Below are positions 6,835 to 36,866 of a stretch of DNA of 64,000 bases, piece by piece. A model generated the notes under the pieces. It was given only the letters and a program-made list of their open reading frames with translations, was not told the DNA's origin and searched no databases. Positions within the stretch are counted from its first letter, which is position 1. The number at the start of each line of letters is the position of its first letter. The translations under genes were made by a program, and so were the position numbers. Origin of the DNA: Candidatus Fimenecus sp. (lineage in GTDB: Bacteria; Bacillota; Clostridia; Oscillospirales; Acutalibacteraceae); NCBI GenBank assembly GCA_045613585.1, contig JAZLBG010000107.1, positions 10,008 through 74,007 on the forward strand, read 5' to 3'.

Positions 6835-6871
6835 AAATCTCTCGGGTTGCGTACTTACCGGGAGATTTTTT
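6835..6871 (+). terminator. Strong hairpin plus T-run upstream of the rep-like gene; orphan terminator or attenuator
   Basis: 11-bp stem aaatctctcgg/ccgggagattt, 12-nt loop, then tttttt. No + strand gene lies upstream. Confidence 0.5.
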
Positions 6872-6940
6872 GTATATATAAACAAAATTTAATTATCTCT
6901 TTCATTCTTTAATTAAACGAGTGAAAGAGGTGATTTTTAT

Positions 6941-8170
6941 TTGAATGTTTATGATATATTGTATCCACCATCAACCCAGTACAAAGGTTGGGTGCAAATT
7001 GCTACACTAAATCAAGAAAAACAAATGGTTTCGCTTGGCTATTCTGATTTTCAGCATATTAAAGAAAAAGCCGAAAAATTAAAAATCAATCCAAATCAAG
7101 ATTATTACATAATGGCAAATACAGTTAATCAATACACAAAGCGAATTAGTGACAATCTATTTTCACTAAATAATATTGTTATAGATTGTGACATTCATTC
7201 AGACATTTCACAGTATGAGCGGGATGAGATAATTGAAGATTTCATATGGCGACTTAATCGAGATTTGTTTAATCTTAATGAGTTGCCCAAATGCAATATT
7301 GCTCATTACACGGGTAGGGGAATTCAACTTTGGTGGCATTTAGGTTCAACATCGTCCAAACTGATTTTTGTATATGAAAAAGTTATTGATTATATTGTTA
7401 TAATTCTCAAGAGCTTTCTCGATGAGTATCCTGAATTAAAACAATATATAGAAATTGATGTATTGGCTAGTAAAAACACAGTTGGATTATTCAGAATGTT
7501 CAATACCCATAATACAAAAATTGATAAAGATACATATGTGGAGGTTTTGCACGACAAATCATTTGGCCTTAATGAATTGCTTAATCAATTAAAAGAGAAT
7601 GAGATTGTTAAAGAATATCTACAACAAAAAGAAGCATTAAAAAAGAAGTATACAAGAAGAGCAAAAAGAGCCCAAAAGACTTATAAAAAGAATAGTTATT
7701 CGGCTCTGCATTATAAACGGATAAGAATTATTGAAGAATTGGCAAAAAAAGAAGACACAACGGGTAAACGAGATATGATGTTGTTCCTTGCCTTTAACTC
7801 TGCAAGACAGATTTATCCAATAGAGCAGGCCAAAACAGTTTGTATCAATATAAACAACTCGTTTGATGAACCACTAAAAGACCTGGAATACATATTCAAG
7901 CAAAAGAAAGTTTATAACATTAAAAATAGTACTTTCTTTGAGCGTTTAGGAGTATCAGAAGAGGAGTTAATTAATATCGGAGCATACGAATTAAGCAAAC
8001 CGAATATAACAAGAGATACAGAAAGGCAACAAAGGAAAATGGAGAAACAGAAAAATAAAGACTTAGCAGTACAACTATTAAAGTCTGGAATCGCTCATAA
8101 AAAGATTAAAGAACAAACAGGGCTATCGTTATCAACAATTGCAAGATTATCAAAAGAAAACAAAAATTAA
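6941..8170 (+). CDS. Replication-initiator / primase-polymerase-like protein with C-terminal HTH
   Basis: TTG start after a GAAAGAGG RBS. VIDCDIH (DxD-type) and GRGIQLWWH (sGxGxHhh-like) motifs resemble prim-pol/Rep proteins of plasmids and IMEs. C-terminal GLSLSTIARLSK HTH. Confidence 0.45.
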   Translation: MNVYDILYPPSTQYKGWVQIATLNQEKQMVSLGYSDFQHIKEKAEKLKINPNQDYYIMANTVNQYTKRISDNLFSLNNIVIDCDIHSDISQYERDEIIEDFIWRLNRDLFNLNELPKCNIAHYTGRGIQLWWHLGSTSSKLIFVYEKVIDYIVIILKSFLDEYPELKQYIEIDVLASKNTVGLFRMFNTHNTKIDKDTYVEVLHDKSFGLNELLNQLKENEIVKEYLQQKEALKKKYTRRAKRAQKTYKKNSYSALHYKRIRIIEELAKKEDTTGKRDMMLFLAFNSARQIYPIEQAKTVCININNSFDEPLKDLEYIFKQKKVYNIKNSTFFERLGVSEEELINIGAYELSKPNITRDTERQQRKMEKQKNKDLAVQLLKSGIAHKKIKEQTGLSLSTIARLSKENKN

Positions 8171-11672: not shown

Positions 11673-11708
11673 TTTGTCACAAATTGACATATTTTTTCGA
11701 TATATAAT
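11673..11708 (+). promoter_or_regulatory. Shared island promoter/operator, copy 1 (TGTCACA-N16-CGAT), upstream of dGTPase-1
   Basis: tttgtcacaaa at 11673-11683 and cgat at 11698-11701, with exactly 16 nt between TGTCACA and CGAT. Confidence 0.6.
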
Positions 11709-11799: not shown

Positions 11800-13293
11800 A
11801 TGTTAATATGGAATCAGTTGTTACAACCAAAGAGATTTAGAGAAAAAGAAACTGTAAAAAGGTCTCCTAGTGATAATAGGTCACCATTCAAGAAGGATTT
11901 CGACACAGTTTGTAATAGTACTATATTGCGAAGATTACAGGATAAAGCACAGGTTTTTCCACTTGAGCAAGAGGACTATGCTCGAACAAGATTAACGCAT
12001 TCTATAGAAGTTATGTCAATTGCTGAAAGTTTAGGCGTTCAGATTATAGATACTATTTTAAAAAAAGATTCTAAATTTATATATACATTGGAAGAAGAAA
12101 AGGAAGATGCTGAGAAACTTGTTAAAGAAATTCCATACATATTAAAAACTGCCGCCTTGTTGCATGATATGGGCAATCCTCCATTTGGACATCTAGGTGA
12201 AAAAATTATAGGTGATTGGTTTAAAAACAATTTAGGAAATTTAGCATTCAATTCAGAAAAACAATTGGTTTTTAATTCGTCGGCAGAAGCAAAAGAGACT
12301 TTGGAATTTATGTTTAAAGGGCGCTATGCTGAAGATTTGAAAAATTTTGAAGGGAATGCTCAATTATTCCGTCTTGTAACAAAATTAAGTTTGGTCGTTG
12401 ATGAAAATGGAATGAACTTAACATTCCCTGTTATGGCTTCTTTTATAAAGTATCCAACATCATCTATGGATGTTGATAAAAATAAATTAATGACTAAAAA
12501 AATAGGATATTTTACTGCTGAAAAAGAACTATTTAATACTATAAACACTACATTAGGTCTTGAAAATTATAGACATCCATTAGCTTTTTTGTTGGAAGCA
12601 GCAGATGATATTGCATATTTAACTGCAGATATTGAAGATGCTCATAGAAAAGGATTAATATCTATGGATAAAATTAGAGACTATCTTAATAATGACAAAG
12701 ATGATGCAATCGTATCTACGCTTTTATCTGCCATGGATAATTATATTCAGAAGGCAAATGAAATGAATTATGAAGATGTTGAAGATTATGTAATTCATAG
12801 GTTAAGAGTTCTAATTAAGGGATTAATGATTGATTCTATGAGCAGTGCATTTGAAAACTCCTATGATTTAATTATGAATGGAGAGTTCGAAACGGAATTG
12901 TTAAATGTTTCTTCAGTAAAATGTGTTGCTGATATCCTAAGAAAAATGGAAAAAGAAAATATCTATTACTGTAATAATATTTTAGAAACTAAAACGCGAG
13001 CTAATGCCATTATAAATAAATTACTAGATATATATATTCCAGCAATAGTTAATTGGAACTATGAATGTGATGCAAATACAGACAGTTCCAATAATTTGTT
13101 ATATTTATCTCTTTCAAAAAACTATAGATATATGTGTGAGCTTGCGAACAAGGATTATTACTTAAAAGATAAATTGTTATCATCAGATTTTGAAACGATG
13201 GTCTACAATAAAATTTTATTAGTTACGGACCAAATTTCGGGTATGACAGATACGCATGCTTTAACTGTGTATAAAACCATAATGGCTAATTAA
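11800..13293 (+). CDS. dGTP triphosphohydrolase-family HD-domain protein (Dgt-like)
   Basis: RSPFKKDFD..ILRRL.DKAQVFPL, RLTHSIEV, LLHDMGNPPFGHLGE and a C-terminal GMTDTHA motif are typical of dGTPases. Confidence 0.85.
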   Translation: MLIWNQLLQPKRFREKETVKRSPSDNRSPFKKDFDTVCNSTILRRLQDKAQVFPLEQEDYARTRLTHSIEVMSIAESLGVQIIDTILKKDSKFIYTLEEEKEDAEKLVKEIPYILKTAALLHDMGNPPFGHLGEKIIGDWFKNNLGNLAFNSEKQLVFNSSAEAKETLEFMFKGRYAEDLKNFEGNAQLFRLVTKLSLVVDENGMNLTFPVMASFIKYPTSSMDVDKNKLMTKKIGYFTAEKELFNTINTTLGLENYRHPLAFLLEAADDIAYLTADIEDAHRKGLISMDKIRDYLNNDKDDAIVSTLLSAMDNYIQKANEMNYEDVEDYVIHRLRVLIKGLMIDSMSSAFENSYDLIMNGEFETELLNVSSVKCVADILRKMEKENIYYCNNILETKTRANAIINKLLDIYIPAIVNWNYECDANTDSSNNLLYLSLSKNYRYMCELANKDYYLKDKLLSSDFETMVYNKILLVTDQISGMTDTHALTVYKTIMAN

Positions 13294-16820: not shown

Positions 16821-16856
16821 TAATTTAATCGTTTTTACAATATGTTTTGTGACAAA
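16821..16856 (-). promoter_or_regulatory. Shared island promoter/operator, copy 4
   Basis: On the - strand: tttgtcacaaa (16856-16846), then cgat (16831-16828) with 16-nt spacing. 43 nt to ATG 16785. Confidence 0.6.
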
Positions 16857-20188: not shown

Positions 20189-21268
20189 ATGCCACTTAAG
20201 ATTATTCGACAAGACATAACCAAAATTGAATGTGATGCTATTGTAAATCCGTCCAACCGTCATTTGTACCCAGGTGGGGGAGCAGACCTTTCAATTCACG
20301 AGGCAGCGGGTCCCGAGTTGCTCGCATATTGTGAAAAACTTGGTGGATGTGAGGTTGGCAAGGCTAAAATCACACCTGCATTCAAATTACCTTGCAAGTA
20401 TGTTATCCATACTGCAGGGCCTAATTGGCATCGCCTTGAAAATGCCGAAGAAGTGCTTGCATCTTGCTATAAAGAGTGCTTGAATCTTGCCAAAGAGAAC
20501 AATTGTGAAACTGTTGCATTTCCATTGATTGCATCAGGTGCTTACGGATTCCCTAAGCAGTCCGTATTAAAGATTGCAACAAGCGTAATCAGTGATTTCT
20601 TGTTCGAGAATGAAATGCTCGTGTATCTTGTGGTTTTCGATAAGAATGCTTTTGAAATCAGTGAAAAGCTGTTTTGTGATGTTGCATCATATATCGACGA
20701 TAACTATGTTGAGCAGAATGCCGAGCATCAGATTGTAGAGGGTAGATATAGCAATTATCCTATGCAGTCATTACGCAGAGAAGAACTCGAAGAGCGTCGT
20801 GAAAGAGTCCTTGAAGAACGAGCAGCAAAGCAAATGATTTGCGAATGCGAGTCAGTTTGTCTTAATATGGAAGAACAGGATGAATTCATTAAATCTGACG
20901 ATATTGACGATTGGCTCAAACGAATGGACAAGGGCTTTGCGGATACACTTTTCTACTATATCGATAAGAAAGAGATTACAGATGTTGAGGCATACAAACG
21001 CTCAAATGTAAGCAAAAAGACCTTCTCAAAAATCAAGTGTAATCCTGATTACAAGCCAAGCAAATTGACTGCAGTGTCCTTCGCAATCGGGCTCAAGCTC
21101 AACCTTGACGAAACAAATCACTTACTCAAAACAGCAGGATTTGCCCTTTCAGAATGTAGCAGATTCGATGTAATCATCCAGTATTTCATCGAAACAGGGG
21201 AATACAAAAACATCTTTGATGTAAACGCAGTATTATACAAATTCGACCAACAGTTGTTAGGGGTGTAG
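20189..21268 (+). CDS. MacroD-type macro domain protein with a C-terminal HTH-like domain
   Basis: DAIVNPSN..L.PGGGADLSIHEAAG, YVIHTAGP and AFPLIASGAYGFP are macro-domain hallmarks. The C-terminus has an XRE-like segment (EAYKRSNVSKKTFSKIK). Confidence 0.85.
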   Translation: MPLKIIRQDITKIECDAIVNPSNRHLYPGGGADLSIHEAAGPELLAYCEKLGGCEVGKAKITPAFKLPCKYVIHTAGPNWHRLENAEEVLASCYKECLNLAKENNCETVAFPLIASGAYGFPKQSVLKIATSVISDFLFENEMLVYLVVFDKNAFEISEKLFCDVASYIDDNYVEQNAEHQIVEGRYSNYPMQSLRREELEERRERVLEERAAKQMICECESVCLNMEEQDEFIKSDDIDDWLKRMDKGFADTLFYYIDKKEITDVEAYKRSNVSKKTFSKIKCNPDYKPSKLTAVSFAIGLKLNLDETNHLLKTAGFALSECSRFDVIIQYFIETGEYKNIFDVNAVLYKFDQQLLGV

Positions 21269-23149: not shown

Positions 23150-23185
23150 TTTGTCACAAATTATCATTAAATTTCGATATAGTAT
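23150..23185 (+). promoter_or_regulatory. Shared island promoter/operator, copy 2, upstream of the dGTPase-RT operon
   Basis: tttgtcacaaa at 23150-23160 and cgat at 23175-23178, 16-nt spacing. 42 nt to ATG 23220. Confidence 0.6.
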
Positions 23186-23219
23186 TTAATAGGAAAGTAA
23201 AAAGATGGAGGAACTTATT

Positions 23220-24455
23220 ATGGCAAAACCAAAATTTTCAAGTTGTGCGGCTACAAGTAAAAATCCGAATTGGGAAAAATTAATAGAAAGACCTGGGGAA
23301 CTGTATTCACGAGAAGATGAAATACGTAGTCCTTTTGCAAGAGATTATACACGAATTCTCCATTGTATGGCATATAGACGACTCAAGCATAAAACTCAAG
23401 TATTCTTCAACATTGACAATGACCACATTTGCACACGAATGGAACATGTTAGTCATGTGGAATCAGTAAGTACAACAATAGCAAAGTATTTAGGATTAAA
23501 TGAAGAATTGACCAAAGCAATTGCGATGGGACACGATTTGGGCCATGCTCCTTTTGGTCATGAAGGAGAAAGAATATTAAGAAACCTTTCTAAAAAGCAT
23601 TTAAATACAGATTTTTGGCACGAGCAAAACGGGTTGCATTTTGTTGATGAAATAGAGCTGCTTGAAGATAACTATAAACACTATAAAAATCTTAATTTAA
23701 CTTATGCGGTAAGAGATGGAATAATTTCACATTGCGGAGAGATTGACCAAAACGGTATCATTCCTAGAGAAATTTCAATTGATATAAATGCTTTCGATGA
23801 AGCTGGTAAATATCAGGCGGTTACTTGGGAAGGTTGCATAGTAAAACTTGCAGATAAAATTGCATATGTTGGTAGAGATATTGAAGATGCAATTAATTTG
23901 GGACTTCTAGACCAACCTGCTAAAAACAAATTACTTAAAATGGCTCAGGCAAACGATGAAAGTGTAATGAATACAACTGTAATAATGCATAATATGATTA
24001 TTGATATTTGCAAAAATAGTTCTCCTGATAAAGGTATTTGTATGAGCCAAGAGTTTAATGAGCAATTAAATGAAATAAAAATGTTTAATTATGAATATAT
24101 TTATGGCCATGAAAGATTAGAACCATTTAAAAAATATTCAGAGTTGATTATCACTCAAATATTTAATTCATTATTATGCCTTTATGATAAAAAACATACT
24201 TGGGGAAAACTTAGCGAAAGAAAGAAATATACACCAATTTTGATTGATTCATTTGAAAAATGGTTAGCACGCTATTGCGAATCAGATATTGTTCCATCAG
24301 GAGAGTTACAAGAACTTTCTTTGAATTGTGAAAATATAAAAATTTACAAAAAACTTGGAAGTAAAAAGTTGTATGTTCAAGCAATTATTGATTATATTTC
24401 GGGAATGACAGATAGATTTGCTATTAAAGTATTTAATGAGTTACTAGAGTATTAA
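23220..24455 (+). CDS. dGTPase-like HD-domain dNTP triphosphohydrolase (short form)
   Basis: SPFARDYTRILH..AYRRLKHKTQVF, RMEHVSHV, GHDLGHAPFGHEGE and a C-terminal SGMTDRFA. ATG 23220 follows a GGAGGA RBS. Confidence 0.85.
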   Translation: MAKPKFSSCAATSKNPNWEKLIERPGELYSREDEIRSPFARDYTRILHCMAYRRLKHKTQVFFNIDNDHICTRMEHVSHVESVSTTIAKYLGLNEELTKAIAMGHDLGHAPFGHEGERILRNLSKKHLNTDFWHEQNGLHFVDEIELLEDNYKHYKNLNLTYAVRDGIISHCGEIDQNGIIPREISIDINAFDEAGKYQAVTWEGCIVKLADKIAYVGRDIEDAINLGLLDQPAKNKLLKMAQANDESVMNTTVIMHNMIIDICKNSSPDKGICMSQEFNEQLNEIKMFNYEYIYGHERLEPFKKYSELIITQIFNSLLCLYDKKHTWGKLSERKKYTPILIDSFEKWLARYCESDIVPSGELQELSLNCENIKIYKKLGSKKLYVQAIIDYISGMTDRFAIKVFNELLEY

Positions 24456-24467
24456 TGGAGAGTTGAT

Positions 24468-26060
24468 ATGGGCATAAAAAAACTTGATAAAAAGAACTTC
24501 ATTTTTCAAATTTCACAATATGGTTTTTTTACAGAACAATTTCCCGAATGTTTTAATAGTGAAAGCTTTGCAAGAGCATTAGACGACTTGATTTCACTAG
24601 TAGCAAGTTCAAAAGGGCAAGCGAAAAAAGGAAATAGGAATACAACATCACCAACAACATTATCTACATATAAAAACGATATATCTAGAAGAGTGCTGTC
24701 AGTGCCAAATCCCGAGGCCTTTTTGAGATTAGCAAAATTTATGCAAGAACATTGGAATGAAATCAACGAATATGCTTATAGTTCAAACTCTTTGTCCCCA
24801 ATTACATTTGTTAGAGTTTATGCACAAGGTGAAGCTGAGGAGTTACTTAATAGTGAATCACTTAGAGAACGCTTTAAAATTAGAAGTGATTTTGTTGTTA
24901 GTATCAAAAATTGTATTCGTGCATCTCTTGGGTATAAGTATAGATTGAGTGTAGATATTTCTAATTGTTATAACTCGCTATATACACATTCTGTTACATG
25001 GGCTATTTGCGGAAAAGATAAGGCAAAGGAATATTTAAGAACCAAATCTCCAGCTGAAATTCAAAGAGATTATGAAATAGCAGATTGTATAGATGCTTTT
25101 ACAAGATTTCAAAAAAACAATGAAACTAATGGTATAATTGTGGGCCCGTATACTTCAAGGATTGTATCAGAAATAGTTTTAGCTCGAATAGATAAAGAAC
25201 TGAAACAAAAAGGGTTACACTTCAAACGTTATGTTGATGATTATAAAATGTATTTTAGAACTGAGTCACAAGCTCAAGAAAGCTTACCGATTATAGAGAA
25301 GGTATTAAACGAATATAATTTATCGCTAAATACCTCGAAAACAGTAATACAAAAATACCCTTATGAAATTATTTTGAATCTTAAAGACTCTTTTGAAAAA
25401 GCTTTTATTGAGGAGGGCGTGTTCGGTGTTTTAAATATGGCTGCGACACTGTTTTCTTCCGGTGAAAAGGGTGCATATAAATATGCTTTAAAATATATCA
25501 AAGATATGACCTTAACTGGTGAAGATATCTATTTGATTATCCCAACATTGATTAACATTATGTTAATTGACCCCAGATATGGTAAATATGTAACGCAGTA
25601 TTTGAAAAAGAATTTATCTTACAGAGAAAAAGAAAAACTGACAAATGTTTTCAATAATGAATTGACAAGTAGCATTGATGGCCAGTTGCAGCAGGAAACA
25701 CTTTTATTTATTCAGCTAATTAAAGATTTGAATTTAAAAATTCAAGGTAGTAATGTTGTTAAAATATTGAAAAGTGATAATGATTTTGCCATTATAATAG
25801 CCCTTGATTTGTGGAAAAATAGTAAAGAATTAGTTATTAGAACAAAGACTGAAGCGCGAGAGATAAATAAAGCTATTGATTGGTTATTGTTAAAATTAAA
25901 TGGTGAAAAATTATCTGGTTCTAGATGGTTGCTATTATATGAAATGAGTGTAAATAAGCTAGTTAGTTCTAAAAAAATGCCAACTATTGAAATGGATGAT
26001 TTCTTCAGTAAAATGTTTGATTTAAAAGTAAGTTTTTATAATTCAAACAAAAAGAATTAA
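24468..26060 (+). CDS. Reverse transcriptase (UG/Abi-like, non-retron) with a ~250-aa helical C-terminal extension
   Basis: RT motifs in order: RVLSVPNPEAF, VDISNCYNSLYTHS (A), GIIVGPYTSRIVSEIVL (B), KRYVDDYKMY (C, YVDD), LSLNTSKT. A GGAG RBS sits in the 12-nt gap after the HD gene. Confidence 0.8.
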   Translation: MGIKKLDKKNFIFQISQYGFFTEQFPECFNSESFARALDDLISLVASSKGQAKKGNRNTTSPTTLSTYKNDISRRVLSVPNPEAFLRLAKFMQEHWNEINEYAYSSNSLSPITFVRVYAQGEAEELLNSESLRERFKIRSDFVVSIKNCIRASLGYKYRLSVDISNCYNSLYTHSVTWAICGKDKAKEYLRTKSPAEIQRDYEIADCIDAFTRFQKNNETNGIIVGPYTSRIVSEIVLARIDKELKQKGLHFKRYVDDYKMYFRTESQAQESLPIIEKVLNEYNLSLNTSKTVIQKYPYEIILNLKDSFEKAFIEEGVFGVLNMAATLFSSGEKGAYKYALKYIKDMTLTGEDIYLIIPTLINIMLIDPRYGKYVTQYLKKNLSYREKEKLTNVFNNELTSSIDGQLQQETLLFIQLIKDLNLKIQGSNVVKILKSDNDFAIIIALDLWKNSKELVIRTKTEAREINKAIDWLLLKLNGEKLSGSRWLLLYEMSVNKLVSSKKMPTIEMDDFFSKMFDLKVSFYNSNKKN

Positions 26061-26080: not shown

Positions 26081-26126
26081 AAAAGCTAACAATACCTATG
26101 GTTATAATAGAGTGTTGTTAGCTTTT
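26081..26126. terminator. Bidirectional terminator
   Basis: 12-bp stem aaaagctaacaa/ttgttagctttt. Confidence 0.6.
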
Positions 26127-26153: not shown

Positions 26154-27032
26154 TTATCGCTCTGTTGGAAATATTAAATCTGGTGGATAATGAATACTTT
26201 TAACTTTTCTGATTTTTTTCATATCATATACAGCTGTATTAGGAAGATTCAAAGGGACTGGACCTGAAACGATATAATGTTTGTATGGAGAAAACCAAAT
26301 AACGTAATCTGCTTTAATTTCTTTTAAAACGTTAATAAATTCTTCATCAAAAAAATGTTTATGTATTTCAGCTCTATATGGTGCACCTGTAATAATCTCA
26401 GATGGTAGTTCCTCTGTATTGTTTGCTTGTGCGTACGCACAAGATTCATCGATAATTAAAAACACGCATTTATGTTTTGGGTGATTCTTTTTATATAGTG
26501 GAATTTGGGAATTGTGCTTTTCCAAAACTCTTTTGAAGCTAGATATATAAAATTTGTAGTTGTGGTCTTCTTCTGTAGGTAAATTAGAATGCGAAATTAC
26601 TATGACCTTATTACCATTAACGCCATCCTCAATTCCTTTAGACTTTAATTCAGAATATATTTTGCTTTCTGCCACATTTGTAGCGTTATATAACTTGCCG
26701 CTTTTTAATTTTTTAGTATGGTCATCTACTCGCATTACTTCCATCATGAGTTTATATTTATCGCTATAGAAATCAGGTGGTGGGTCAGATTTTTTGCTGT
26801 TATCCACCCAGTTTTTCCAATGACAACTTTTTAGCACTTTATTAACAATAAAAATAGATTTTATGCTATTAAAAATGATTCCGTGGCATGTGGTTTGAAA
26901 GTACTCAATTATATTTGATTCCTTATCAAAAAAATTCACACTATCACCTCTTTTGTGATTATTATAACATCTCATTTTCGAATAATCAATTTTATTAAGT
27001 TCACTTAGTCCATAAAAATGTACTGAATTCAA
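26154..27032 (-). CDS. Hypothetical protein, possibly a restriction endonuclease partner; start uncertain
   Basis: Divergent from the C-protein/methyltransferase operon. PPDFYSD...LMMEVMRVDD is only loosely PD-ExK-like. No clear RBS at TTG 27032 or at ATG 26975. Confidence 0.3.
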   Translation of the reverse strand: MNSVHFYGLSELNKIDYSKMRCYNNHKRGDSVNFFDKESNIIEYFQTTCHGIIFNSIKSIFIVNKVLKSCHWKNWVDNSKKSDPPPDFYSDKYKLMMEVMRVDDHTKKLKSGKLYNATNVAESKIYSELKSKGIEDGVNGNKVIVISHSNLPTEEDHNYKFYISSFKRVLEKHNSQIPLYKKNHPKHKCVFLIIDESCAYAQANNTEELPSEIITGAPYRAEIHKHFFDEEFINVLKEIKADYVIWFSPYKHYIVSGPVPLNLPNTAVYDMKKIRKVKSIHYPPDLIFPTER

Positions 27033-27195
27033 AATAAAAAGCAGACAGTGATTTAATTCTATGATATAATATATTTAAACAAGAAAAATGCTGAAATCTC
27101 AATATTTTTTTGGAAATAAGTTGAGAAAAGTAATTTATTGTGATATAATTTCACTAATGTTTATGAAAAATTATATTAATCATAGGGGTGTAATC

Positions 27196-27405
27196 ATGGC
27201 TGCAAGTTATAAGAAATTATTTAAGCTATTAATTGATCGTGACATGAAGAAAAAAGAACTTGCTGAAAAGGCGGGCATCAGTATTGCTACTATTACTAAG
27301 ATGGGCAAAGACGGTGCCGTTGTTTCAAGTGATGTTCTCGTAAAAATCTGCACTGCACTAGATTGTACAATGGATGATATTGTGCAAATTGTACCTGAAA
27401 AATAA
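27196..27405 (+). CDS. XRE-family HTH protein (controller-like) preceding the methyltransferase
   Basis: KKKELAEKAGISIATITKMGKDGAVVSSDVLVKICTAL is an HTH_3 pattern. AGGGGTG RBS. Confidence 0.7.
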   Translation: MAASYKKLFKLLIDRDMKKKELAEKAGISIATITKMGKDGAVVSSDVLVKICTALDCTMDDIVQIVPEK

Positions 27406-27472
27406 CAAAGATATTTTCAGGACAATAATTTAGAGTTTAGATTACAGATATTTGTGCGGAGGATTACCTAAA

Positions 27473-29890
27473 ATGGTAGATAATAAACTTACATATATAA
27501 GTCTTTTTAGTAGCGCTGGAGTTGGATGCTATGGATTTAAAAAAGAAGGATACGAATGTATTGCGACTTGCGAATTGCTTTCTGCAAGATTAGATGTGCA
27601 GAAAGCTAACAATAAATGTAAATATGAGTCAGGTTACATTTCTGGAGATTTAACCAAAGTTGAAATAAAAGAGCAACTTTTTAATGAAGTGGAAATGTGG
27701 AGAGAGAAAGAAAAAGTTGAATCTGTTGATGTCGTTGTTGCTACACCACCTTGTCAGGGAATGAGTACTGCAAATTATAAGAAAGGTGATGAAAGCAAAA
27801 GAAATTCACTTGTTGTTGAAGCGATATCTATTATAAAGAAATTGCAGCCAAAGGTTTTTGTTTTCGAAAATGTTAAAGCTTTTTTGAAAACAGCATGTAC
27901 CGATATAAATGGAGAAATAATTCCTATTAAAGATAGCATTTATAGAAATCTCGGCAAGGACTATCATATATACGCAAGGGTCATTAATTTTAATGAATAT
28001 GGTGTACCATCAAGTCGCCCAAGAACTATTGTTGTTGGAACGCATAAAGATTTTATTCATTTTAGTCCTTTGAATATCTTTCCATTAAAAGAAGAGCAAC
28101 GCACTGTGAGAGATGCGATTGGTGATTTACCATCATTAAGATTTGGAGAAATGTCAGATGATACGCTCCATTTCTTTAGAGAGTATCCAAGATATATGGA
28201 AGAATGGATTAGCCATTTGGCTGAAGGTGAGTCTGCTTTTAATAATGAAGAACCATATAAACCATATAAAATTGAAAACGGAGAAAAGATTGTCTTGAAA
28301 GGTTCTCATATGGGAAATAAATTCAGGAGACTTTTTTGGGATAGACCAGGTGCATGTATTGCGACTAGGAACGACCAGTTAGCAAGTCAAGACACCATCC
28401 ACCCTAAAGATAATCGAGTTTTAAGTATTCGTGAATTGATGCGCTTAATGACTATACCTGATGATTTTCAATGGTCTAATACAGATATTAATAGTCTTAA
28501 GACAAAGGATGAAAAGAAAGTTTTCTTAAAAGAAAATGAATTAAATATAAGAAGATGTATAGGAGAGGCTGTTCCAACACATATAATGCAGACAATTGCA
28601 AAAAATGCCAAGGAAATGATAGCTTTCCAACATTATGTTGAGGATTATTATTCTAATAAGACAAACAATAAGCCAAAGTCATATTATGAAAAAGCTTTTG
28701 ATTTTGAGATGAATCTGACTGAGGTAAAGGAAACAGGTTCTTATTACACGCCTCAAACAGTAGTGTTTGAAGCATTATCAACTATTGACCTTAATGGTAA
28801 AAAAGAAATAAGAATTTTAGAACCATCAGTTGGTATGGGTGCATTTTTACCTCAATTATTCAGACTTTGTGATGTTTGCGATAAGGTTTGTTTAGATGTA
28901 TGCGATTGTGATGCCGACGCTTTAAAAACTTTAAAATCAATAATTAAATTGATTCCTTATAACAAAGATATTATCTCTATTAAGTATATTTGTGATGATT
29001 TTTTAATTACAAACAAAATTAAAAAGAGTTATGATTTGATTATTTCCAATCCGCCTTTCGCAAAGGTGTCAAAGGACAAACTTGCTGATTACAAGGCACA
29101 GTATGATGTTGGCAAGTCGACAAATGCTTTTGCATTTTTCCTTGATAGATACTTGTCTTTATCTGATGAAATTGCTGTTATAGTCCCAAAAAGTTTTGTT
29201 ATGGCTGCGGAATATAATAATATACGAAATAAATATCAGAAATTGGGTATTACACACATTGTGGATTTTGGTGTAAAGTACTTTAAAACCGTTTTCGTTG
29301 AAATTCTTTCAATTCATTTTAAGAAGGGATATACTGGAACGATTGCAGTTGAAAACAAACTTTTGGGAGAAGAATACTATCAAGAACAAGGATATATATT
29401 TCATGATAAATGTTGGCTGATGTATAGGGATTCATGGTTTGATAATTATATAAAAACATTGAAATTAGATGTTTTTGATATGTTTAGAGACCGTCAAATT
29501 ACCAATAGTAAGGTTTCGACATCTGGAGATGTTTGGGTTTTGCGTTCCAAAAATATACTTGATAGTGGTGAAATAGTATCTAAAGAAGGATATGATCGCT
29601 TTATTTCGACGGAAGATTTGCACAAGTATAATGTATCTCAATATTTGAATTCTAATGCAATCATAATGCCTAATTTCACGTATCTTACTCGTGCAACAAG
29701 GTTACCCAATAATTGCATACCAAACGGTTCTATTGCAATATTAAAACCTAAAGCTATAATAGGCGATATAGATTTAACTTTGTACGCTAGTGATGATTTT
29801 AGAAAATACTATGAAATCGTTAAAAACAAGGCTAGATTTACCTTGAATTTAGATTCCAATTCTATCTATTATGTGGGGATAAAAAAGTAA
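27473..29890 (+). CDS. Fused DNA methyltransferase: N-terminal C5-cytosine MTase plus C-terminal gamma-class N6-adenine MTase
   Basis: C5 motifs: FSSAGVG (I), PPCQGMS (IV), ENV (VI), SSRPR (VIII), GEAVP (X). N6A motifs: YYTP, EPSVGMGAF (I), NPPF (IV). Confidence 0.85.
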   Translation: MVDNKLTYISLFSSAGVGCYGFKKEGYECIATCELLSARLDVQKANNKCKYESGYISGDLTKVEIKEQLFNEVEMWREKEKVESVDVVVATPPCQGMSTANYKKGDESKRNSLVVEAISIIKKLQPKVFVFENVKAFLKTACTDINGEIIPIKDSIYRNLGKDYHIYARVINFNEYGVPSSRPRTIVVGTHKDFIHFSPLNIFPLKEEQRTVRDAIGDLPSLRFGEMSDDTLHFFREYPRYMEEWISHLAEGESAFNNEEPYKPYKIENGEKIVLKGSHMGNKFRRLFWDRPGACIATRNDQLASQDTIHPKDNRVLSIRELMRLMTIPDDFQWSNTDINSLKTKDEKKVFLKENELNIRRCIGEAVPTHIMQTIAKNAKEMIAFQHYVEDYYSNKTNNKPKSYYEKAFDFEMNLTEVKETGSYYTPQTVVFEALSTIDLNGKKEIRILEPSVGMGAFLPQLFRLCDVCDKVCLDVCDCDADALKTLKSIIKLIPYNKDIISIKYICDDFLITNKIKKSYDLIISNPPFAKVSKDKLADYKAQYDVGKSTNAFAFFLDRYLSLSDEIAVIVPKSFVMAAEYNNIRNKYQKLGITHIVDFGVKYFKTVFVEILSIHFKKGYTGTIAVENKLLGEEYYQEQGYIFHDKCWLMYRDSWFDNYIKTLKLDVFDMFRDRQITNSKVSTSGDVWVLRSKNILDSGEIVSKEGYDRFISTEDLHKYNVSQYLNSNAIIMPNFTYLTRATRLPNNCIPNGSIAILKPKAIIGDIDLTLYASDDFRKYYEIVKNKARFTLNLDSNSIYYVGIKK

Positions 29891-29907
29891 AAAAAGAGGT
29901 GAGTTAG

Positions 29908-32583
29908 ATGCAGAGTTTAGCAAAAATTTTTATGGGGACATTTGGTTCTGGAAAAACTTATAATGCAATAAAAGCTGCATGTGATTTTATAGGTGAAGAT
30001 AATAGTCATGAAAATTTCATGCGTTTGTGTAACGAGAAGCGAATAGCTTATATTCCATTAAGCCCTAATTTTACATATGAAAACTTTGTAGCTGGTGTTA
30101 AAGTTTCAACTGATGCAAAAGGAAAGATTACTTATCAAGTGGTGGATAAAGTCTTTTCTGAAATGTGTGAGAAAGCTTTAATGCATAAAGATTTAAATTA
30201 TTGTGTTATTTTAGATGATTTGGACCGTGTAAACATTAGTGTTCTGTTAGGCGAATTGATTAATGCTATAGAATATAGAAATGAGCGTGTAACTACAACT
30301 AGTGGGAAATCCATAATGGTTCCAGATAATTTGTTGATTGTAGGGACTTTGAATTCCTTGAATCAAAGAGATACAGATTATGCTGTTTTAAGAAGATTTA
30401 ATTTACAACCACTAAACCCAACAAAGCAATTGATTTATGATTTTTATGAGGGTTATCCTGGTGATGTTGTTGAGACAGTTGTAGAGTTTTATGAGAAAGT
30501 TAACTCCTTTATTGATTTAAACATATCAACAGATTATTTAGATTTGTTAAATGAGTATCATATTAGCCCGGCTTTTTATTTGAAAAGCAAAGCTTCTGCG
30601 GTAGATTTGTTAAATGTAATTGTTACATATATAGATTCAATTATTATTCCAATCTTGCATCAATATGTATCAGATGGAATACTTGATTGCTCTTTTGACG
30701 ATGTTAAGAGTTTTCAGGCATCCTTAGTGTCTATGCGTGCTGATATACAGAGTGCTAGTGTGAAAAAGATTACAAAGTGGATTTATAATTATGATACTGA
30801 CAGTTGGGCATCCGTTGACAACTGTGGTTCGGATGCAAAGGATGAATATATAGAAACATTGCACAACGAGCTTCGTGGATATAAGGCCGAACTCTTTAGA
30901 CTTATTTTTGAGGCAGTTTCTTTTTCGAATATTGTACCTGTCGATAGCTTATTTAATGATATATATAATAATACAAATCTCATCAAAGTATCAAATCAGT
31001 TTGCACGTTCGAGAGACAAAGAGAGATTAGCTGCATTTGTTGCGGAGGAGAGTGTCTCTGAACAGTTTCAATATAGTACACAGGGCGGTAAAATTAATTG
31101 TTCTGTTTATGCTACTGTTGCGGTAGGCAATAAAATGAAACCTAGATATGAAATAAACGGAAAACGGTATGTAATTGCTAGTGGGTTTAGAAGTGGCGGC
31201 TCAACAACAAGTTTGGATACGTATGAGCCTACCTTATTAGCGCCGCTATATCATGGAGAGTTTGTATATAAATTAATTGTTTCATACTATAATTTAATGA
31301 TTAGAGGATTTGCTGAATCAGGAAACAACTTGTTGGAAAAGTTAGCGAAAGTAGAACTGAATTATGTAATTAAACAAGAACGAATAGCAGAAACTTGGCC
31401 GGAAATTATACCTAATCTATCGATTCTGTGGTCTTCAGCAGGTAGTGAAATACACTTAACATCATCTAAAATTGATGATTTAGAGAGAGCAAGAAATAGC
31501 GTTTCATTTACTAGCTTGTATGAAGATTATGTTGAACAAGAACATAATGAAACTTTGATAATTCCTAGTATAGGGGTGGAAAATATGTCTAACGATTATA
31601 AAAAAATAATGGATTTGCTCAATATTCATCAAATGATTTTACAAGGACCTCCTGGTACATCTAAAACATATGGAGCAAAAGAATTTATAGGTAATCGCAT
31701 TATAGAAAAGGGTGATGCTACAGGTTTACCTATGTCTATTTTGACACAGAATCAATTGAACGAAGAGCACTATAATGAAAATATTGAGTTGGACAAGTCA
31801 GTGTATTGGGATATAGTGCAGTTTCATCCATCATATGACTATGAGGACTTTGTTAGAGGAATAGATGTTAGGCCAGGATATAATGGTATAGAATATGTAA
31901 CAGTAAATAAGACTCTAGGTAAAATCGCTGCATTAGCAAGCAAGAAAGAAAATAGTGGTAAAGAATTTTACCTAATTATCGATGAAATTAACAGAGCTAA
32001 TATTGCATCTGTCTTTGGGGAACTAATTTATGCGTTAGAATATCGTGGAGAACCTGTTGAAACACCGTATGCTGTTAATGGTGAATCAACAATATCTTTA
32101 CCATCTAATCTATACATAATAGGTACTATGAATACGGCGGATAAATCAATTGGAAATATTGACTATGCAGTGAAGAGAAGATTTATATTCTTTAATAGTT
32201 TGCCTAATAGAGAAACTGTATTGAGTTGTGCCGAGAAAGATGAAAATGCAATAGAGGTAAGGGCTTATGATATTGTGGCTCAATTATTTAGAGATTACTT
32301 GAATTCAGAATATAATATTGATGATGTACAATTAGGACATACATATTTTTTAAGAGTAAAAGAGAGTCCAGTAATGGATGAAAAAGAATGTATGTTTGAA
32401 AAAATGCGTTATCAAATCATCCCAATTTTAAGAGAATATTTTAAAGATGGAATATTAGAGAATAATGAAGACTCAGGTTCAAGTCAAGCATCTCAAGAAT
32501 TGATGAGCATTATTGAACAATATAGCGTTTTCAAAGATATAGATAAAACAATTTCTGATTGGTTGAATAAACATTTAAATTAA
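29908..32583 (+). CDS. McrB-like AAA+ GTPase with a tandem (degenerate plus canonical) AAA+ module
   Basis: C-terminal half: GPPGTSKT, IIDEINRANIASVFGELIYALEYRG, IGTMNTADKS..IDYAVKRRF. N-terminal half repeats the pattern in degenerate form: GSGKTY, ILDDLDRVNISVLLGELINAIEYR, VGTLNS...DYAVLRRF. Confidence 0.85.
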   Translation: MQSLAKIFMGTFGSGKTYNAIKAACDFIGEDNSHENFMRLCNEKRIAYIPLSPNFTYENFVAGVKVSTDAKGKITYQVVDKVFSEMCEKALMHKDLNYCVILDDLDRVNISVLLGELINAIEYRNERVTTTSGKSIMVPDNLLIVGTLNSLNQRDTDYAVLRRFNLQPLNPTKQLIYDFYEGYPGDVVETVVEFYEKVNSFIDLNISTDYLDLLNEYHISPAFYLKSKASAVDLLNVIVTYIDSIIIPILHQYVSDGILDCSFDDVKSFQASLVSMRADIQSASVKKITKWIYNYDTDSWASVDNCGSDAKDEYIETLHNELRGYKAELFRLIFEAVSFSNIVPVDSLFNDIYNNTNLIKVSNQFARSRDKERLAAFVAEESVSEQFQYSTQGGKINCSVYATVAVGNKMKPRYEINGKRYVIASGFRSGGSTTSLDTYEPTLLAPLYHGEFVYKLIVSYYNLMIRGFAESGNNLLEKLAKVELNYVIKQERIAETWPEIIPNLSILWSSAGSEIHLTSSKIDDLERARNSVSFTSLYEDYVEQEHNETLIIPSIGVENMSNDYKKIMDLLNIHQMILQGPPGTSKTYGAKEFIGNRIIEKGDATGLPMSILTQNQLNEEHYNENIELDKSVYWDIVQFHPSYDYEDFVRGIDVRPGYNGIEYVTVNKTLGKIAALASKKENSGKEFYLIIDEINRANIASVFGELIYALEYRGEPVETPYAVNGESTISLPSNLYIIGTMNTADKSIGNIDYAVKRRFIFFNSLPNRETVLSCAEKDENAIEVRAYDIVAQLFRDYLNSEYNIDDVQLGHTYFLRVKESPVMDEKECMFEKMRYQIIPILREYFKDGILENNEDSGSSQASQELMSIIEQYSVFKDIDKTISDWLNKHLN

Positions 32584-32598
32584 CAACTGGTGATTTTT

Positions 32599-33903
32599 AT
32601 GATTCATGCAAAAACATGGAGTAAAATAGATGGTTTAGATAACAAAACTTGTCAAAATGCTCTTTTTAGCAATAATTATCAAAATATGGGAATTCATTTT
32701 CATAATGGAGAATTATGGTCTTCAGGATATGCCGGAATATGTCGCTTGGTCGACCGTTTTGGTGGAATTATAAAGGGTGGAAATGAGAATCAAATAATAC
32801 TTTCTGTGGAGCCTAATTATGATGTCACTCCATTTGAAATGCTTGCTGCTGTTATGTCTGATGATGAGTATGATGATTATCTTGATGTCTTAAAAAAAGA
32901 AAAACGTGAATTGTTTCATATCTTTTTAGAGCAAGAAACTATAGAAACCAGTGTTACTGGGTGTTCTGGTGATTTTCTGATTGCTGCATCATTTATAATG
33001 AGTTGTAAATATGTATGTAAGCGAAAGTTAAAGCCACAAATGGTCAAACACAACGAGAATTTGAGGGCTAAGGCAAAAGGCAAAATAGATATCAAAAGAC
33101 AATTAAAAACGAATGTTTTCAGAGGAAGAGAAGATAGAATGTTTTGTACATACAACATTTTTTCAATCGATACTTTGGAAAATAGAATACTTAAATTTGC
33201 ACTAAAAAAAGCAGAACATATAATCAAAAATAAATATGGTAAAGTATATGATTATATGAAAAAGGATATAAAGTTCTGCAAAAATGCTTTGGCAGATGTT
33301 TCGGATATTAGAGTTGACAAAAATATGTTTACAAGAGTTTCGGTGAATGGTTTGTATCCGTATTATAAGGAACCAATACAACTAGCCAAACAACTGGTTT
33401 GTGACTTGTATATTGAACCGGTATACCAGGGAGAGCATACTGGAAAAGTTATACCATATGTAATTAATATGGAATTACTTTTTGAGTTTTATATTAGAAC
33501 AAAGCTGAAAGAGTATTATGCCGACAAAGAAATATATAGTGTTGGGAAATACAACAAGAAATATGTATTTTTAAGACACCACATGCATCAAAATCATTTA
33601 ATTAAACATTATATTCCAGATGTTATAATATTAAAAGATTCTAAACCAGAAGCGGTTTTTGATGTTAAGTTCAAAAACAGATTAAAGCCTGACAGGAATG
33701 ATACTCATCAGCTCATGAGTTATGTTTTAATGTTGGGCGTTAATAAGTGTGGTTTTATTTTCCCAAAATCTCAAGACCTTTCTGGTGGTTTAGCGTTTCA
33801 AGATGAATTAAATGTTGCCGATGATGTGATTTCTTATTATGAAATTGAATACGATAAAGAAATTATAGCAAGCTCTATGCTTGAAGTGGGCTGTAGTGAG
33901 TGA
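32599..33903 (+). CDS. McrC-like nuclease subunit
   Basis: Directly follows the McrB-like gene. C-terminal PD-(D/E)XK motif: IPDVIIL...VFDVKFK. Confidence 0.65.
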   Translation: MIHAKTWSKIDGLDNKTCQNALFSNNYQNMGIHFHNGELWSSGYAGICRLVDRFGGIIKGGNENQIILSVEPNYDVTPFEMLAAVMSDDEYDDYLDVLKKEKRELFHIFLEQETIETSVTGCSGDFLIAASFIMSCKYVCKRKLKPQMVKHNENLRAKAKGKIDIKRQLKTNVFRGREDRMFCTYNIFSIDTLENRILKFALKKAEHIIKNKYGKVYDYMKKDIKFCKNALADVSDIRVDKNMFTRVSVNGLYPYYKEPIQLAKQLVCDLYIEPVYQGEHTGKVIPYVINMELLFEFYIRTKLKEYYADKEIYSVGKYNKKYVFLRHHMHQNHLIKHYIPDVIILKDSKPEAVFDVKFKNRLKPDRNDTHQLMSYVLMLGVNKCGFIFPKSQDLSGGLAFQDELNVADDVISYYEIEYDKEIIASSMLEVGCSE

Positions 33904-33987
33904 CTAATAGTAGATGAAACCTACATTGAAATCAAAATGTTTGCTAATTGGAAATAAATGCAGAGTACTGCAATAAGGTGCAATGAT

Positions 33988-34401
33988 ATGATTAAAGACA
34001 TAATTTATGACCCGATTTTGTTGGCGATGAAATCGGAAAAGGCTACAATTGAAGATTTGCAGGTGGCAGAAGATTTGCTTGACACTCTCACTGCCAATGC
34101 TGATGGTTGTGTTGGTATGGCAGCTAATATGATTGGTGTACATAAGCGTATCATTTGCTTCGATGATAACGGTAAGTATATGACTATGTTCAACCCCGAA
34201 GTCATTAGAAAGTCAGACCCTTATGAAACCGAAGAAGGTTGCCTTTCATTGCTTGGTGTTCCCCGTAAGTGTAAGCGTTATAAGAGTATAAAAGTGCAGT
34301 GGCAGACAGCTGAATTCCAGACCCGAATCAAAACATTCACCGGATGGACAGCACAAATCATTCAGCATGAAATTGACCATTGTGATGGTATCTTAATTTA
34401 A
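33988..34401 (+). CDS. def: Peptide deformylase
   Basis: GVGMAANMIG, EGCLS and HEIDH motifs. Confidence 0.85.
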   Translation: MIKDIIYDPILLAMKSEKATIEDLQVAEDLLDTLTANADGCVGMAANMIGVHKRIICFDDNGKYMTMFNPEVIRKSDPYETEEGCLSLLGVPRKCKRYKSIKVQWQTAEFQTRIKTFTGWTAQIIQHEIDHCDGILI

Positions 34402-34411
34402 TGGTGATGCT

Positions 34412-34861
34412 ATGAAAATTATAATTGATGCTGATGCGTGTCCCGTTGTGGATATTACTGTCAATGTGGCAAAAGAGCGTGGACTTGAGTGTATCATTGT
34501 TTGCGACAATACCCACACCATTGAAAGGGATGGCGCTACAACTATAGTTGTTGATAAGGGTGCTGATTCTGCCGATTGTCGTATTGCTAATATCACCGAA
34601 AAGGGTGATGTGGTTGTTACGCAGGATTACGGACTTGCAGCTCTCGTGCTTGGCAAGGGCGGTAAGGCACTTAATCAGAATGGACTCATTTACACCGATA
34701 GCAATATAGAAAATCTCCTTTTCACCCGTTTTATAGGCAAAAAGGAGCGTATGGCAGGTAACAGGACAAAGGGTCCTAAAAAGAGAACATCACAAAACAA
34801 TGCAGATTTTTTAAAAGCATTGTTAATATGCCTTGACCATTGTGATGGTATATTGATTTGA
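34412..34861 (+). CDS. YaiI/YqxD (DUF188, UPF0178) family protein with a chimeric C-terminus
   Basis: MKIIIDADACPV... N-terminus is typical of DUF188. The last 9 codons (DHCDGILI*) copy the end of def. Confidence 0.7.
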   Translation: MKIIIDADACPVVDITVNVAKERGLECIIVCDNTHTIERDGATTIVVDKGADSADCRIANITEKGDVVVTQDYGLAALVLGKGGKALNQNGLIYTDSNIENLLFTRFIGKKERMAGNRTKGPKKRTSQNNADFLKALLICLDHCDGILI

Positions 34862-34901: not shown

Positions 34902-36605
34902 ATGATGGATAATCACAACAATCCTGCGGTTGTTATAAAATCAATTACATTTAATGATGGTAGTGAAATTGAATTTAATAGTGACGACATAGTATTATTG
35001 GTTGGAGCCAATAATGTCGGTAAAAGCCGTACTTTGAAAGATTTACAAGCAGATTTAATTGATAATGAAAATTCAAGAGTATTAATAAAAAAAGTTGACT
35101 ATCATACCAGTAATTTTGCTACAGAACCAATAAAGAATTTCTTTGAAAGAAATATTCGTAAAAATATTCATGGTGACTATGTCGTTCCTGTGAATGATAA
35201 TTGCACCCATCAATTCAGTGAATTTGATTTTGAGAATGTTTTAGACGGTGATAAGCGCTTCTACAAAGTTTTGTATTCATTTTTGTCAACAGAAAGTCGA
35301 TTGAATATAACAAAACCAATTAGCTTTAATTATGGTGTTGATAAAACATGTTCAAACATATTAAATAAACTAGAAGAGCACCAAGAAATAATAGAGACAC
35401 TAAACGAAATATTGTCATCAGCATTTGGGAAGGCTATTGATGTGTATGAACGTTCTGATGATGATGTCATTGTAAAAGAATATAAAATTGGCGATGGCAA
35501 ATTAATTACTGATGCAATTAATTCAAACAGACGAGAGGGGAAAAGAATACTGAAAGAACTGGATAGCCTACATCACCAAGGTGATGGTATAAGAAGTGCA
35601 GTTGCTATCTTAGCTTCTCTTATTGTTAACGAACATTCATTGCTTTTGATTGACGAACCGGAAACTTTTTTACATCCACCTCAAGCGAAACTGATTGGAA
35701 AAAACATTGTGCAATTATCAGAGAATAAACAATGTTTTATTGCTACACACAATATTGATTTCATTAAAGGTGTTGTAGAAGCAAATTCTTCTAGAGTAAA
35801 AATAATAAAGATTAATAGATATGAAAATGAAAATACTTTTAATTTAATTAAAAACAACAGCATTATTGAAATTGCAAACGATAAGAACTTAAAATATACA
35901 AACATTCTGGATGGTTTATTTTATAATCGTTTGGTGTTGTGTGAAAATGAAAGTGATTGCAAATTTTATGCCTCATTATTGGAAAATATGGATTTATCCA
36001 AGTATCAAAGTACGCTATTTTGTGCAGTTGGAGGTAAAGACCAGTTCAAAAAAGTAATACCTTTGCTAAGAGAACTGCGTATAGATTATTTGATTATTGC
36101 TGATATAGACTTAATCGATAATAAAGAGAATTTAAAACAATTAATGAATTCCATAGTAACAGATGGATATGAGCAAATACGTAAAAAGCATAATGATTTT
36201 TTGGAAAAATTTGAAGAAGGAACAAATTCTCAAGTTAAAATTCAATGTGATATACAAAAAGAAATTAACGAGGCTTTCACAGATGAAAGATATATCTCAC
36301 CGGAAACTGTTGATAAGATAAAATCGATATTAAAGAATATTAGTTCTTTAAAATTATTGAAAAGGGGCGGAAAAAACATTTTGCCTCAAGGAGATTGTAC
36401 AGCACTATTTAATGAGATTAATAATTACCTACATGAGCATAATGTTTTTATTGTAGAATGTGGAGAAATTGAACGGTTTGTGCCAAACGTAGGTGGACAT
36501 GGAAATAATTGGTTAGAGAAGGTATTTGAAAAGTATAGGGATATTGACGATAATGTTTACAATGACGCAAAACAGTTTGTTAAGGTAATCTTTAAAATTG
36601 ATTGA
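34902..36605 (+). CDS. OLD-family / PARIS-like fused ABC-ATPase plus TOPRIM protein
   Basis: Walker A GANNVGKS, Walker B LLLIDEPETFLHP, H-loop ATHN. TOPRIM-like CENESD ... IIADIDL. Confidence 0.75.
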   Translation: MMDNHNNPAVVIKSITFNDGSEIEFNSDDIVLLVGANNVGKSRTLKDLQADLIDNENSRVLIKKVDYHTSNFATEPIKNFFERNIRKNIHGDYVVPVNDNCTHQFSEFDFENVLDGDKRFYKVLYSFLSTESRLNITKPISFNYGVDKTCSNILNKLEEHQEIIETLNEILSSAFGKAIDVYERSDDDVIVKEYKIGDGKLITDAINSNRREGKRILKELDSLHHQGDGIRSAVAILASLIVNEHSLLLIDEPETFLHPPQAKLIGKNIVQLSENKQCFIATHNIDFIKGVVEANSSRVKIIKINRYENENTFNLIKNNSIIEIANDKNLKYTNILDGLFYNRLVLCENESDCKFYASLLENMDLSKYQSTLFCAVGGKDQFKKVIPLLRELRIDYLIIADIDLIDNKENLKQLMNSIVTDGYEQIRKKHNDFLEKFEEGTNSQVKIQCDIQKEINEAFTDERYISPETVDKIKSILKNISSLKLLKRGGKNILPQGDCTALFNEINNYLHEHNVFIVECGEIERFVPNVGGHGNNWLEKVFEKYRDIDDNVYNDAKQFVKVIFKID

Positions 36606-36830: not shown

Positions 36831-36866
36831 TTTGTCACAAAATATTACTTTTAAACGATGTAAATA
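36831..36866 (+). promoter_or_regulatory. Shared island promoter/operator, copy 3
   Basis: tttgtcacaaa at 36831-36841 and cgat at 36856-36859, 16-nt spacing. 44 nt to ATG 36903. Confidence 0.6.

Follow-up and report, generated by a model that had tools for sequence, protein, structure and literature searches.

In its main text, the UG/Abi classification of Mestre et al. (2022, PMC9226505) defines UG30 as a new Class 1 group of reverse transcriptases (RTs), predicts from individual loci that it is defensive, and names no partner gene for it. Stand-alone dGTPases with anti-phage activity are known from other work (bioRxiv 10.1101/2021.04.26.441389; Vdg, PMC13519002). Here we describe a locus where the two kinds of gene form one operon, an HD-domain deoxynucleoside triphosphate (dNTP) triphosphohydrolase of the dGTPase family (the HD protein) followed by a UG30 RT. 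It lies in a 64,000-nucleotide (nt) stretch of Candidatus Fimenecus sp. (GCA_045613585.1, contig JAZLBG010000107.1, positions 10,008-74,007 of the forward strand), called the window throughout and numbered from its first letter. The gene kinds are known defence genes and their pairing is undescribed; it is rare but evolutionarily maintained.

The RT of the window matches the full UG30 profile and shares the Class 1 layout and the defence-island location given for the group in that main text, and differs in being the second gene of an HD operon. Its best structural matches are DRT4 (UG15) and DRT6 (UG12), at TM scores of 0.72-0.80; with strong sequence matches as well, these probably share their chemistry with the window RT. 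Both are hexameric, protein-primed and template-independent, and make random single-stranded DNA (ssDNA) that is trimmed by host exonuclease and becomes toxic once shielded by an SSB-like protein of the phage (PMC12783706). Each of the two is encoded by a solitary gene, whereas the window RT sits in an operon, falls below the Drt4 cutoff and has a non-conserved S/C/N column aligned with the DRT4 priming residue Tyr125. Because AbiK, DRT4 and DRT6 make untemplated DNA, the output of a Class 1 defence RT depends directly on the dNTP pool.

Precedents for joining a UG/Abi RT to a nucleotide-acting phosphohydrolase appear in the main text of the UG/Abi classification (PMC9226505), namely UG23 with its NUDIX partner and UG24 with its fused phosphohydrolase. 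As described there, the UG23 partner is a membrane-anchored NUDIX effector of the CBASS type, and in UG24 a COG3294 domain is joined to a Class 3 RT of more than 1000 residues; both are RT groups other than UG30, and neither phosphohydrolase is of the dGTPase family. No earlier account of a dGTPase-RT operon turned up in that main text, in a 2026 survey of dGTPase architectures (PMC13519002), among the PADLOC multi-gene candidate models or in full-text literature searches. The first three of these sources bear out a statement made when the window was first read from its letters (the original prediction), that no described system was known to couple the two enzymes. Current annotation tools would call the HD protein and the RT two adjacent single-gene systems.

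The operon and its two proteins

The HD gene occupies 23220-24455 (+) and encodes 411 residues; the RT gene occupies 24468-26060 (+) and encodes 530. The HD stop codon (24453-24455) is separated from the RT ATG at 24468 by a 12-nt spacer, TGGAGAGTTGAT (24456-24467, +), which carries GGAG at 24457-24460 and holds no terminator. Upstream lie a copy of a promoter element shared within the island (23151-23181, +; TTGTCACAAA at 23151-23160, then CGAT at 23175-23178) and a GGAGG ribosome-binding site (23207-23211, +) 8 nt before the HD start codon. Downstream, a hairpin terminator at 26081-26126, plausibly bidirectional, separates the RT from a convergent open reading frame (ORF; 26154-27032, -). 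The hairpin has a folding energy of -24.8 kcal/mol (z = -4.8 relative to shuffled sequences), an A-run on its 5' side and a U-run on its 3' side, and was not detected by a simple terminator scan. The HD-RT pair is a genuine operon, forming one transcription unit.

In these respects the original prediction agrees with the ORF translations and the sequence. The two ORFs, the 12-nt gap with its GGAG and the 530-residue RT are as it had them; the motifs it quoted (RMEHVSHV, GHDLGHAPFGHEGE, VDISNCY, GIIVGPYTS and YVDD) are all found in the translations; and the terminator it placed at 26081-26126 coincides with the strong hairpin and its A- and U-runs. Its overall picture is supported, that of a two-gene operon inside a defence island which pairs a dGTPase-family HD protein with a non-retron RT of the UG/Abi type.

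Two ATGs, at 23205 and 23220, could start the HD gene. We take 23220 as the more likely start because of the length of the homologues (about 408-435 residues, mostly 411, among the matches listed), the N-termini of relatives (MAKQKF in both RT-linked relatives, MAKPKF in the window) and the GGAGG 8 nt upstream. The HD genes of these two relatives, at loci L117 and L112, have a homologous arrangement of ribosome-binding site and start.

The promoter element was found by aligning the regions 5' of HD and RT genes across loci; a generic sigma-70 scan and a repeat finder both missed it. The pattern TTTTTGTCACAAA-N15-CGAT-N2-A is invariant at four sites in the window, each just 5' of a gene or gene pair. 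The copy at 11674-11683 (+) precedes a second dGTPase gene (11800-13293), that at 16846-16855 (-) a gene of unknown function encoding 368 residues, that at 23151-23160 (+) the HD-RT operon and that at 36832-36841 (+) a pair of genes of unknown function (330 and 195 residues). Spacing in the operon copy is 14 nt from TTGTCACAAA to CGAT, or 17 nt from the end of TGTCAC. When one mismatch is allowed, the 10-mer has 25 matches in the window (four of them exact) against 14 expected, a number reached in 0 of 100 shuffles. An alignment of seven sequences that includes L112, L116 and L117 keeps TGTCACAAA and CGAT invariant and their spacing fixed. The shared island promoter of the original prediction is thus confirmed by four invariant copies upstream of genes. 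To judge from the -35/-10 layout of known extracytoplasmic function (ECF) promoters, TGTCAC-N17-CGAT resembles an alternative (ECF-type) sigma promoter, and the element suggests that several island genes are under one regulon. No sigma factor gene was found in the window when it was searched with the sigma gene of L128, itself read as sporulation-type and irrelevant.

Profile matches make the RT a full-length UG30 member of Class 1. The PADLOC model RT_UG30 scores 604 bits (E 3.7e-182) and aligns RT residues 5-526 with profile positions 2-493 of 493; the next groups, Drt6 (300 bits, E 7e-90) and Drt4, score half. Pfam finds RVT_1. Profile searches that asked whether the pair maps cleanly to a named subtype therefore returned a named group for the RT, UG30, and no one system for both proteins: among the best 25 of 57 PADLOC matches, the RT hit nothing but models for individual RTs, and no multi-gene model (PDC-M or other) was among them. 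The catalytic residues D163 (VDISNCY, motif A) and YVDD 255-258 (motif C) are invariant across 40 homologues. An AlphaFold2 model based on these homologues (mean pLDDT 87.6, pTM 0.88) predicts that the RT domain leads into a C-terminal region of ~230 residues made up of helices (modelled at residues ~305-518), so that the C-terminal alpha-helical repeat (alphaRep) domain, the hallmark of Class 1, is present in the predicted structure. A Foldseek search with the full-length model found hexameric DRT6 (TM 0.75/0.80), DRT4/UG15 (0.72) and AbiK (0.70), and a sequence search of the PDB with the RT returned the same relatives. The UG/Abi-like helical extension that had been read from the letters is borne out by this model and its superposition on the three enzymes.

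Other RT classes were considered and rejected. The RT falls well short of cutoff for the NCBIfam models of Drt4, Drt3b, group II introns and retrons; for the Drt4 equivalog it reaches 218.2 bits against a cutoff of 450. Retron identity was discarded on a retron RT score of 30.5 bits against a cutoff of 235, in keeping with the earlier description of the RT as non-retron, and the only Rfam matches in the window are two tRNAs. Group II intron and CRISPR-associated RTs were discarded on their NCBIfam and PADLOC scores and the lack of an Rfam RNA.

In a phmmer alignment the residues N124-Y125 of DRT4, which include its priming tyrosine, fall on N128-S129 of the window RT; UG30 members have S, C or N in column 129, so that a conserved tyrosine is missing at the place of the DRT4 priming residue. 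N128 is invariant (codons 128-129 at ~24849-24854), and Y118 (~24819-24821) is present in 39 of the 40 homologues. The UG30 priming residue, if any, may therefore differ from that of DRT4, with Y118 as a candidate alternative.

The HD protein is, on its profile and structure matches, a member of the dGTPase or dNTP triphosphohydrolase family. Pfam HD and HD_assoc are both above cutoff, TIGR01353 (dGTP_triPase) is passed at 170.7 against 152.35, and PADLOC gives a dGTPase match (E 5e-55) and otherwise only a weak one to Cas3b (PADLOC v2). No NCBIfam equivalog cutoff is passed, the top NCBIfam models being generic dGTPases. Among solved structures the nearest in sequence is 2dqb, a putative dGTP triphosphohydrolase (E 1.9e-38), with whose H, HD and D motif regions RMEH, GHDLGH and LADKIAY align. 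The window HD is like the stand-alone anti-phage dGTPases in its HD plus HD_assoc architecture, its PADLOC dGTPase match and its defence-island location; it differs from them in being co-transcribed with an RT and in scoring far below the NCBIfam anti-phage dGTPase models (122 against 400 for NF041026, 106 against 383 for NF003701).

Distribution of the pairing and of other hydrolase partners

UG30 loci were gathered from genomes (at least two loci), metagenomes (about nine true UG30 loci) and assemblies. An HD gene lies directly upstream of the RT in only three sequence clusters, those of the window, L117 (RT 89-90% identical to that of the window, HD-RT gap 12 nt) and L112 (78-79%, 14 nt), and the spacers of L117 and L112 also hold a ribosome-binding site. 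Of the 186 UG30 clusters (E <= 1e-10) these make up 3, and of the more than 8000 clusters of HD homologues 3 or perhaps 4. The HD-RT pairing is limited to one narrow clade, and most UG30 relatives have no HD neighbour, which answers in the negative the question of whether the HD partner is generally conserved near RT homologues.

Within that clade the pairing is old. Synonymous divergence (dS) among the three lineages is 0.6-2.1, near saturation, while both genes remain intact and omega is 0.06-0.08 for HD and 0.06-0.09 for RT; both are under strong purifying selection. The RT-linked HD proteins are one another's closest relatives (83-85% identity, against 69-75% to three aligned stand-alone HDs), and the sequence 5' of the promoter is unlike among the three loci. 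Together these findings lead us to conclude that the promoter-HD-RT cassette has long been preserved. Between the window and L117, dS is 1.44 for HD and 0.60 for RT, an inequality which suggests that the two cistrons have had different recombination histories.

Elsewhere in UG30 a different hydrolase takes the upstream position. A MutT-like NUDIX_4 gene (126-137 residues; PDC-S07 in PADLOC) lies 13-30 nt upstream of the RT and on the same strand at L001 (pair at 5590-7551), L002 (5595-7551), L004 (856-2889) and L130/131 (3057-5090 in L130). This NUDIX-linked clade adjoins the HD clade, its RTs being ~63-67% identical to that of the window. Its two sub-clades have co-diverged (RT 67%, NUDIX 55% identity), and flanks are unrelated among L001, L002 and L130; L004 and L130 both have an SRA-domain gene upstream, which overlaps the NUDIX start by 4 nt. 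From the co-divergence and the unrelated flanks we argue that NUDIX-UG30 is a genuine module. To our knowledge, the NUDIX-UG30 pairs are also undescribed. They are like the window pair in RT group, in the upstream same-strand position of the partner and in that partner being a small-molecule nucleotide hydrolase, and unlike it in the fold and chemistry of the partner, a MutT-like pyrophosphohydrolase rather than an HD triphosphohydrolase. By analogy, this parallel module gives a functional link between HD and RT some support, and hints that a nucleotide-hydrolase accessory is recurrent.

At L003 a PF06189 5'-nucleotidase gene (3906-4820, +; PADLOC PDC-S08, E 5e-128) ends 126 nt before the RT (4947-6593), which adds a third kind of nucleotide hydrolase to the neighbours of UG30. 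Among the ~18 UG30 contexts with a readable upstream region, the neighbour is HD in three, NUDIX in four, a 5'-nucleotidase in one and none of these in ~10. As a control we took the other Class 1 RTs returned by the metagenome scan; 0 of 99 such non-UG30 loci from the same scans have an HD-dGTPase or this NUDIX within ~5 kb, an imperfect comparison as the loci come from other habitats. At L115 a NUDIX gene lies downstream of the RT and ahead of a peptide deformylase gene; being unrelated (23% identity), it was treated as coincidental.

In viral contigs, a scan with the NUDIX protein gave 29 loci, 0 of them adjoining an RT, and a scan with the HD protein gave no relative. The RT had no tblastn match in plasmid and phage collections. 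A UG30 homologue at L010 (5001-6552, ~40% identical) is split into ORFs 5001-5423 and 5431-6552, which probably reflects either a frameshift in a pseudogene or an error of assembly.

Possible roles of the HD protein

The reading to which we lean, tentatively, is that the HD protein is an optional accessory of the RT, one that adds nucleotide depletion and probably limits basal ssDNA synthesis; it is drawn from gene context. Two normally autonomous defence modules would here be welded into one bicistronic anti-phage operon. The HD protein, by homology with stand-alone bacterial dGTPases, would hydrolyse dGTP or dNTPs to nucleoside and triphosphate and starve phage DNA replication. The UG30 RT, by homology with DRT4, DRT6 and AbiK, would be an oligomeric, protein-primed, template-independent polymerase that makes random ssDNA. 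Phage ssDNA-binding proteins would shield this ssDNA from host exonucleases, and the resulting toxicity would abort the infection. Enzymes that deplete nucleotides make up a distinct, expanding class of immune effectors, and the HD protein, an accessory and not an obligate partner, would provide a second defence layer of this kind. In uninfected cells it would probably throttle basal ssDNA synthesis, since it consumes the RT's own substrate. Because a MutT-like NUDIX occupies the same slot in the neighbouring UG30 clade, we take the presence of a nucleotide-hydrolase accessory to be a recurrent feature of this RT group, and one under selection.

A functional link, as suggested in the original prediction, is plausible. 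The operon kept under purifying selection and the NUDIX parallel speak for it; most relatives are unpaired, which speaks against it, and the coupling itself is something we infer. Were the coupling true, it would offer a handle on how the constitutive, potentially toxic DNA synthesis of such an RT is controlled and on whether nucleotide depletion and ssDNA toxicity cooperate, and UG30, a predicted but uncharacterised group, would gain a concrete and testable architecture.

Several observations weigh against any such link. UG30 stands alone in at least eight clusters (including L113/L114, L132/L133, L134, L135-138, L006, L009 and L011), and at L005 it comes after a type I restriction module. 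L116, whose RT is 75% identical to that of the window, sits inside the HD clade in a neighbour-joining tree and has the promoter directly before the RT and no HD gene. (The region concerned is 254-330; the database gene call, of 559 residues, starts 5' of the promoter and is probably too long.) The HD family has more than 8000 detectable relatives, and the three that were examined (72-75% identical, in 12 places) are all monocistronic. Length (411 residues) and the two Pfam domains are the same in RT-linked and stand-alone HDs, with no specialisation seen. Neither gene needs the other, we conclude, given that UG30 mostly lacks HD, that L116 keeps promoter and RT, and that HD relatives are overwhelmingly stand-alone. 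PADLOC lists each of the dGTPase, the NUDIX (PDC-S07) and the 5'-nucleotidase (PDC-S08) as a defence entry or candidate made up of a single gene, and the HD-RT adjacency could simply reflect the clustering of defence genes in gut Clostridia. Downstream helix-turn-helix (HTH) and methyltransferase genes are common to the window and L112, and part of the HD-RT conservation may therefore be the inheritance of a larger island block.

It is accordingly quite possible, if short of probable, that the HD protein and the RT are independent neighbours in a crowded island which have lost the terminator between them, share a transcript and protect only additively; the locus would then be an ordinary piece of a Clostridial defence island. 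The stand-alone HD genes of L118, L123 and L128 have a GC-rich hairpin straight after the stop codon, read as a terminator, and the RT-linked HDs have none. Besides the solitary occurrence of each gene, the L116 arrangement and the unspecialised HD, the idea of independence draws on the second dGTPase of the window, which stands alone under the island promoter and shows dGTPases to be ordinary single-gene cargo, and on the unequal dS of the two cistrons between the window and L117, which suggests independent recombination. It is less easily squared with the adjacency, spacer length and ribosome-binding site that outlast saturating synonymous divergence in three lineages, with RT-linked HDs that are mutually closest relatives, with a second hydrolase type that occupies the same slot and has co-diverged with its RT across unrelated flanks, or with the lack of such a neighbour at all 99 control loci. 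A bolder view would take UG30 RTs as a hitherto unrecognised family of two-gene systems whose template-independent polymerase is obligately tuned by an interchangeable upstream hydrolase (HD, NUDIX, possibly 5'-nucleotidase) that brakes the toxic ssDNA synthesis until infection or is itself activated by the RT's ssDNA. We consider this unlikely, if within reach; it would link DNA synthesis and dNTP destruction in one immune circuit.

The HD protein could instead be the effector and the RT its sensor or signal generator, with RT-made ssDNA that accumulates on infection allosterically activating the HD dNTPase so that the dNTP pool collapses. Escherichia coli Dgt is stimulated by ssDNA, for which it has a high affinity (PMC9478638), its ssDNA site lies where other dGTPases have their allosteric sites, dGTPase domains have repeatedly been co-opted as immune effector modules (PMC13519002), and the ssDNA of DRT4 and DRT6 accumulates only after infection (PMC12783706). 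Yet the nearest structure to the window HD is 2dqb, with no ssDNA-bound Dgt entry among the matches listed, and nothing in the sequence directly supports such activation. Closely related HDs occur without any RT, the RT occurs without HD in most lineages and would by homology itself be the toxic effector, and the NUDIX proteins in the same slot are single-domain proteins of ~130 residues with no known nucleic-acid sensing. We therefore hold a sensor-effector arrangement to be improbable. Least credible of all, and rejected, is a host housekeeping dGTPase behind which a mobile RT happened to land. The HD family is indeed of very large size, with high conservation in Clostridia and Lachnospiraceae, and its top NCBIfam matches are generic dGTPase models. 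Its stand-alone members, however, keep mobile and defensive company, and identical proteins have varying flanks: neighbours are an AAA+/S8 peptidase with a serine recombinase and JetABC in one case, and an AAA_21 protein with a Y-family polymerase, or SIR2, in others. Moreover, two divergent dGTPase paralogues occur in one island, both under the island promoter, and what lies upstream of the promoter-HD-RT cassette differs among three contigs.

The surrounding island

The window represents a defence island from a Clostridia bacterium of low GC content, and a 99%-identical RT is annotated from a Clostridia metagenome-assembled genome. The second dGTPase-family gene (11800-13293, +; 497 residues) has Pfam HD and HD_assoc and a PADLOC dGTPase match (E 1.7e-65); the two island paralogues are only 23% identical.

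Downstream of the operon, 27088-33903 (+) holds an HTH gene, a gene for a fused C5 and N6 DNA methyltransferase of 812 residues, one for an AAA_5 (McrB-like) protein of 891 residues and one for a McrC-like protein. HTH and methyltransferase genes follow the RT at L112 too, and a methyltransferase gene does so at L116, so the RT may travel with a restriction-type block. The convergent ORF between the RT terminator and the HTH-methyltransferase block (26154-27032, -; 292 residues) has no Pfam or PADLOC match and is missing at the equivalent place in L112.

Further island defence genes are likely an OLD-family ATPase-TOPRIM nuclease (34902-36605, +; PADLOC Old, E 2e-22) and a 359-residue Macro-domain protein with an uncharacterised C-terminal half (20189-21268, +). 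Two adjacent small ORFs at 33958-34401 and 34412-34861 (+; 147 and 149 residues) have in common a 30-nt repeat, 90% identical, at the 3' end, and are probably tandem paralogues. The defence-gene region is flanked by tRNA-Trp (6399-6474, -) and tRNA-Leu (55435-55522, -), which could mark the limits of an integrated element.

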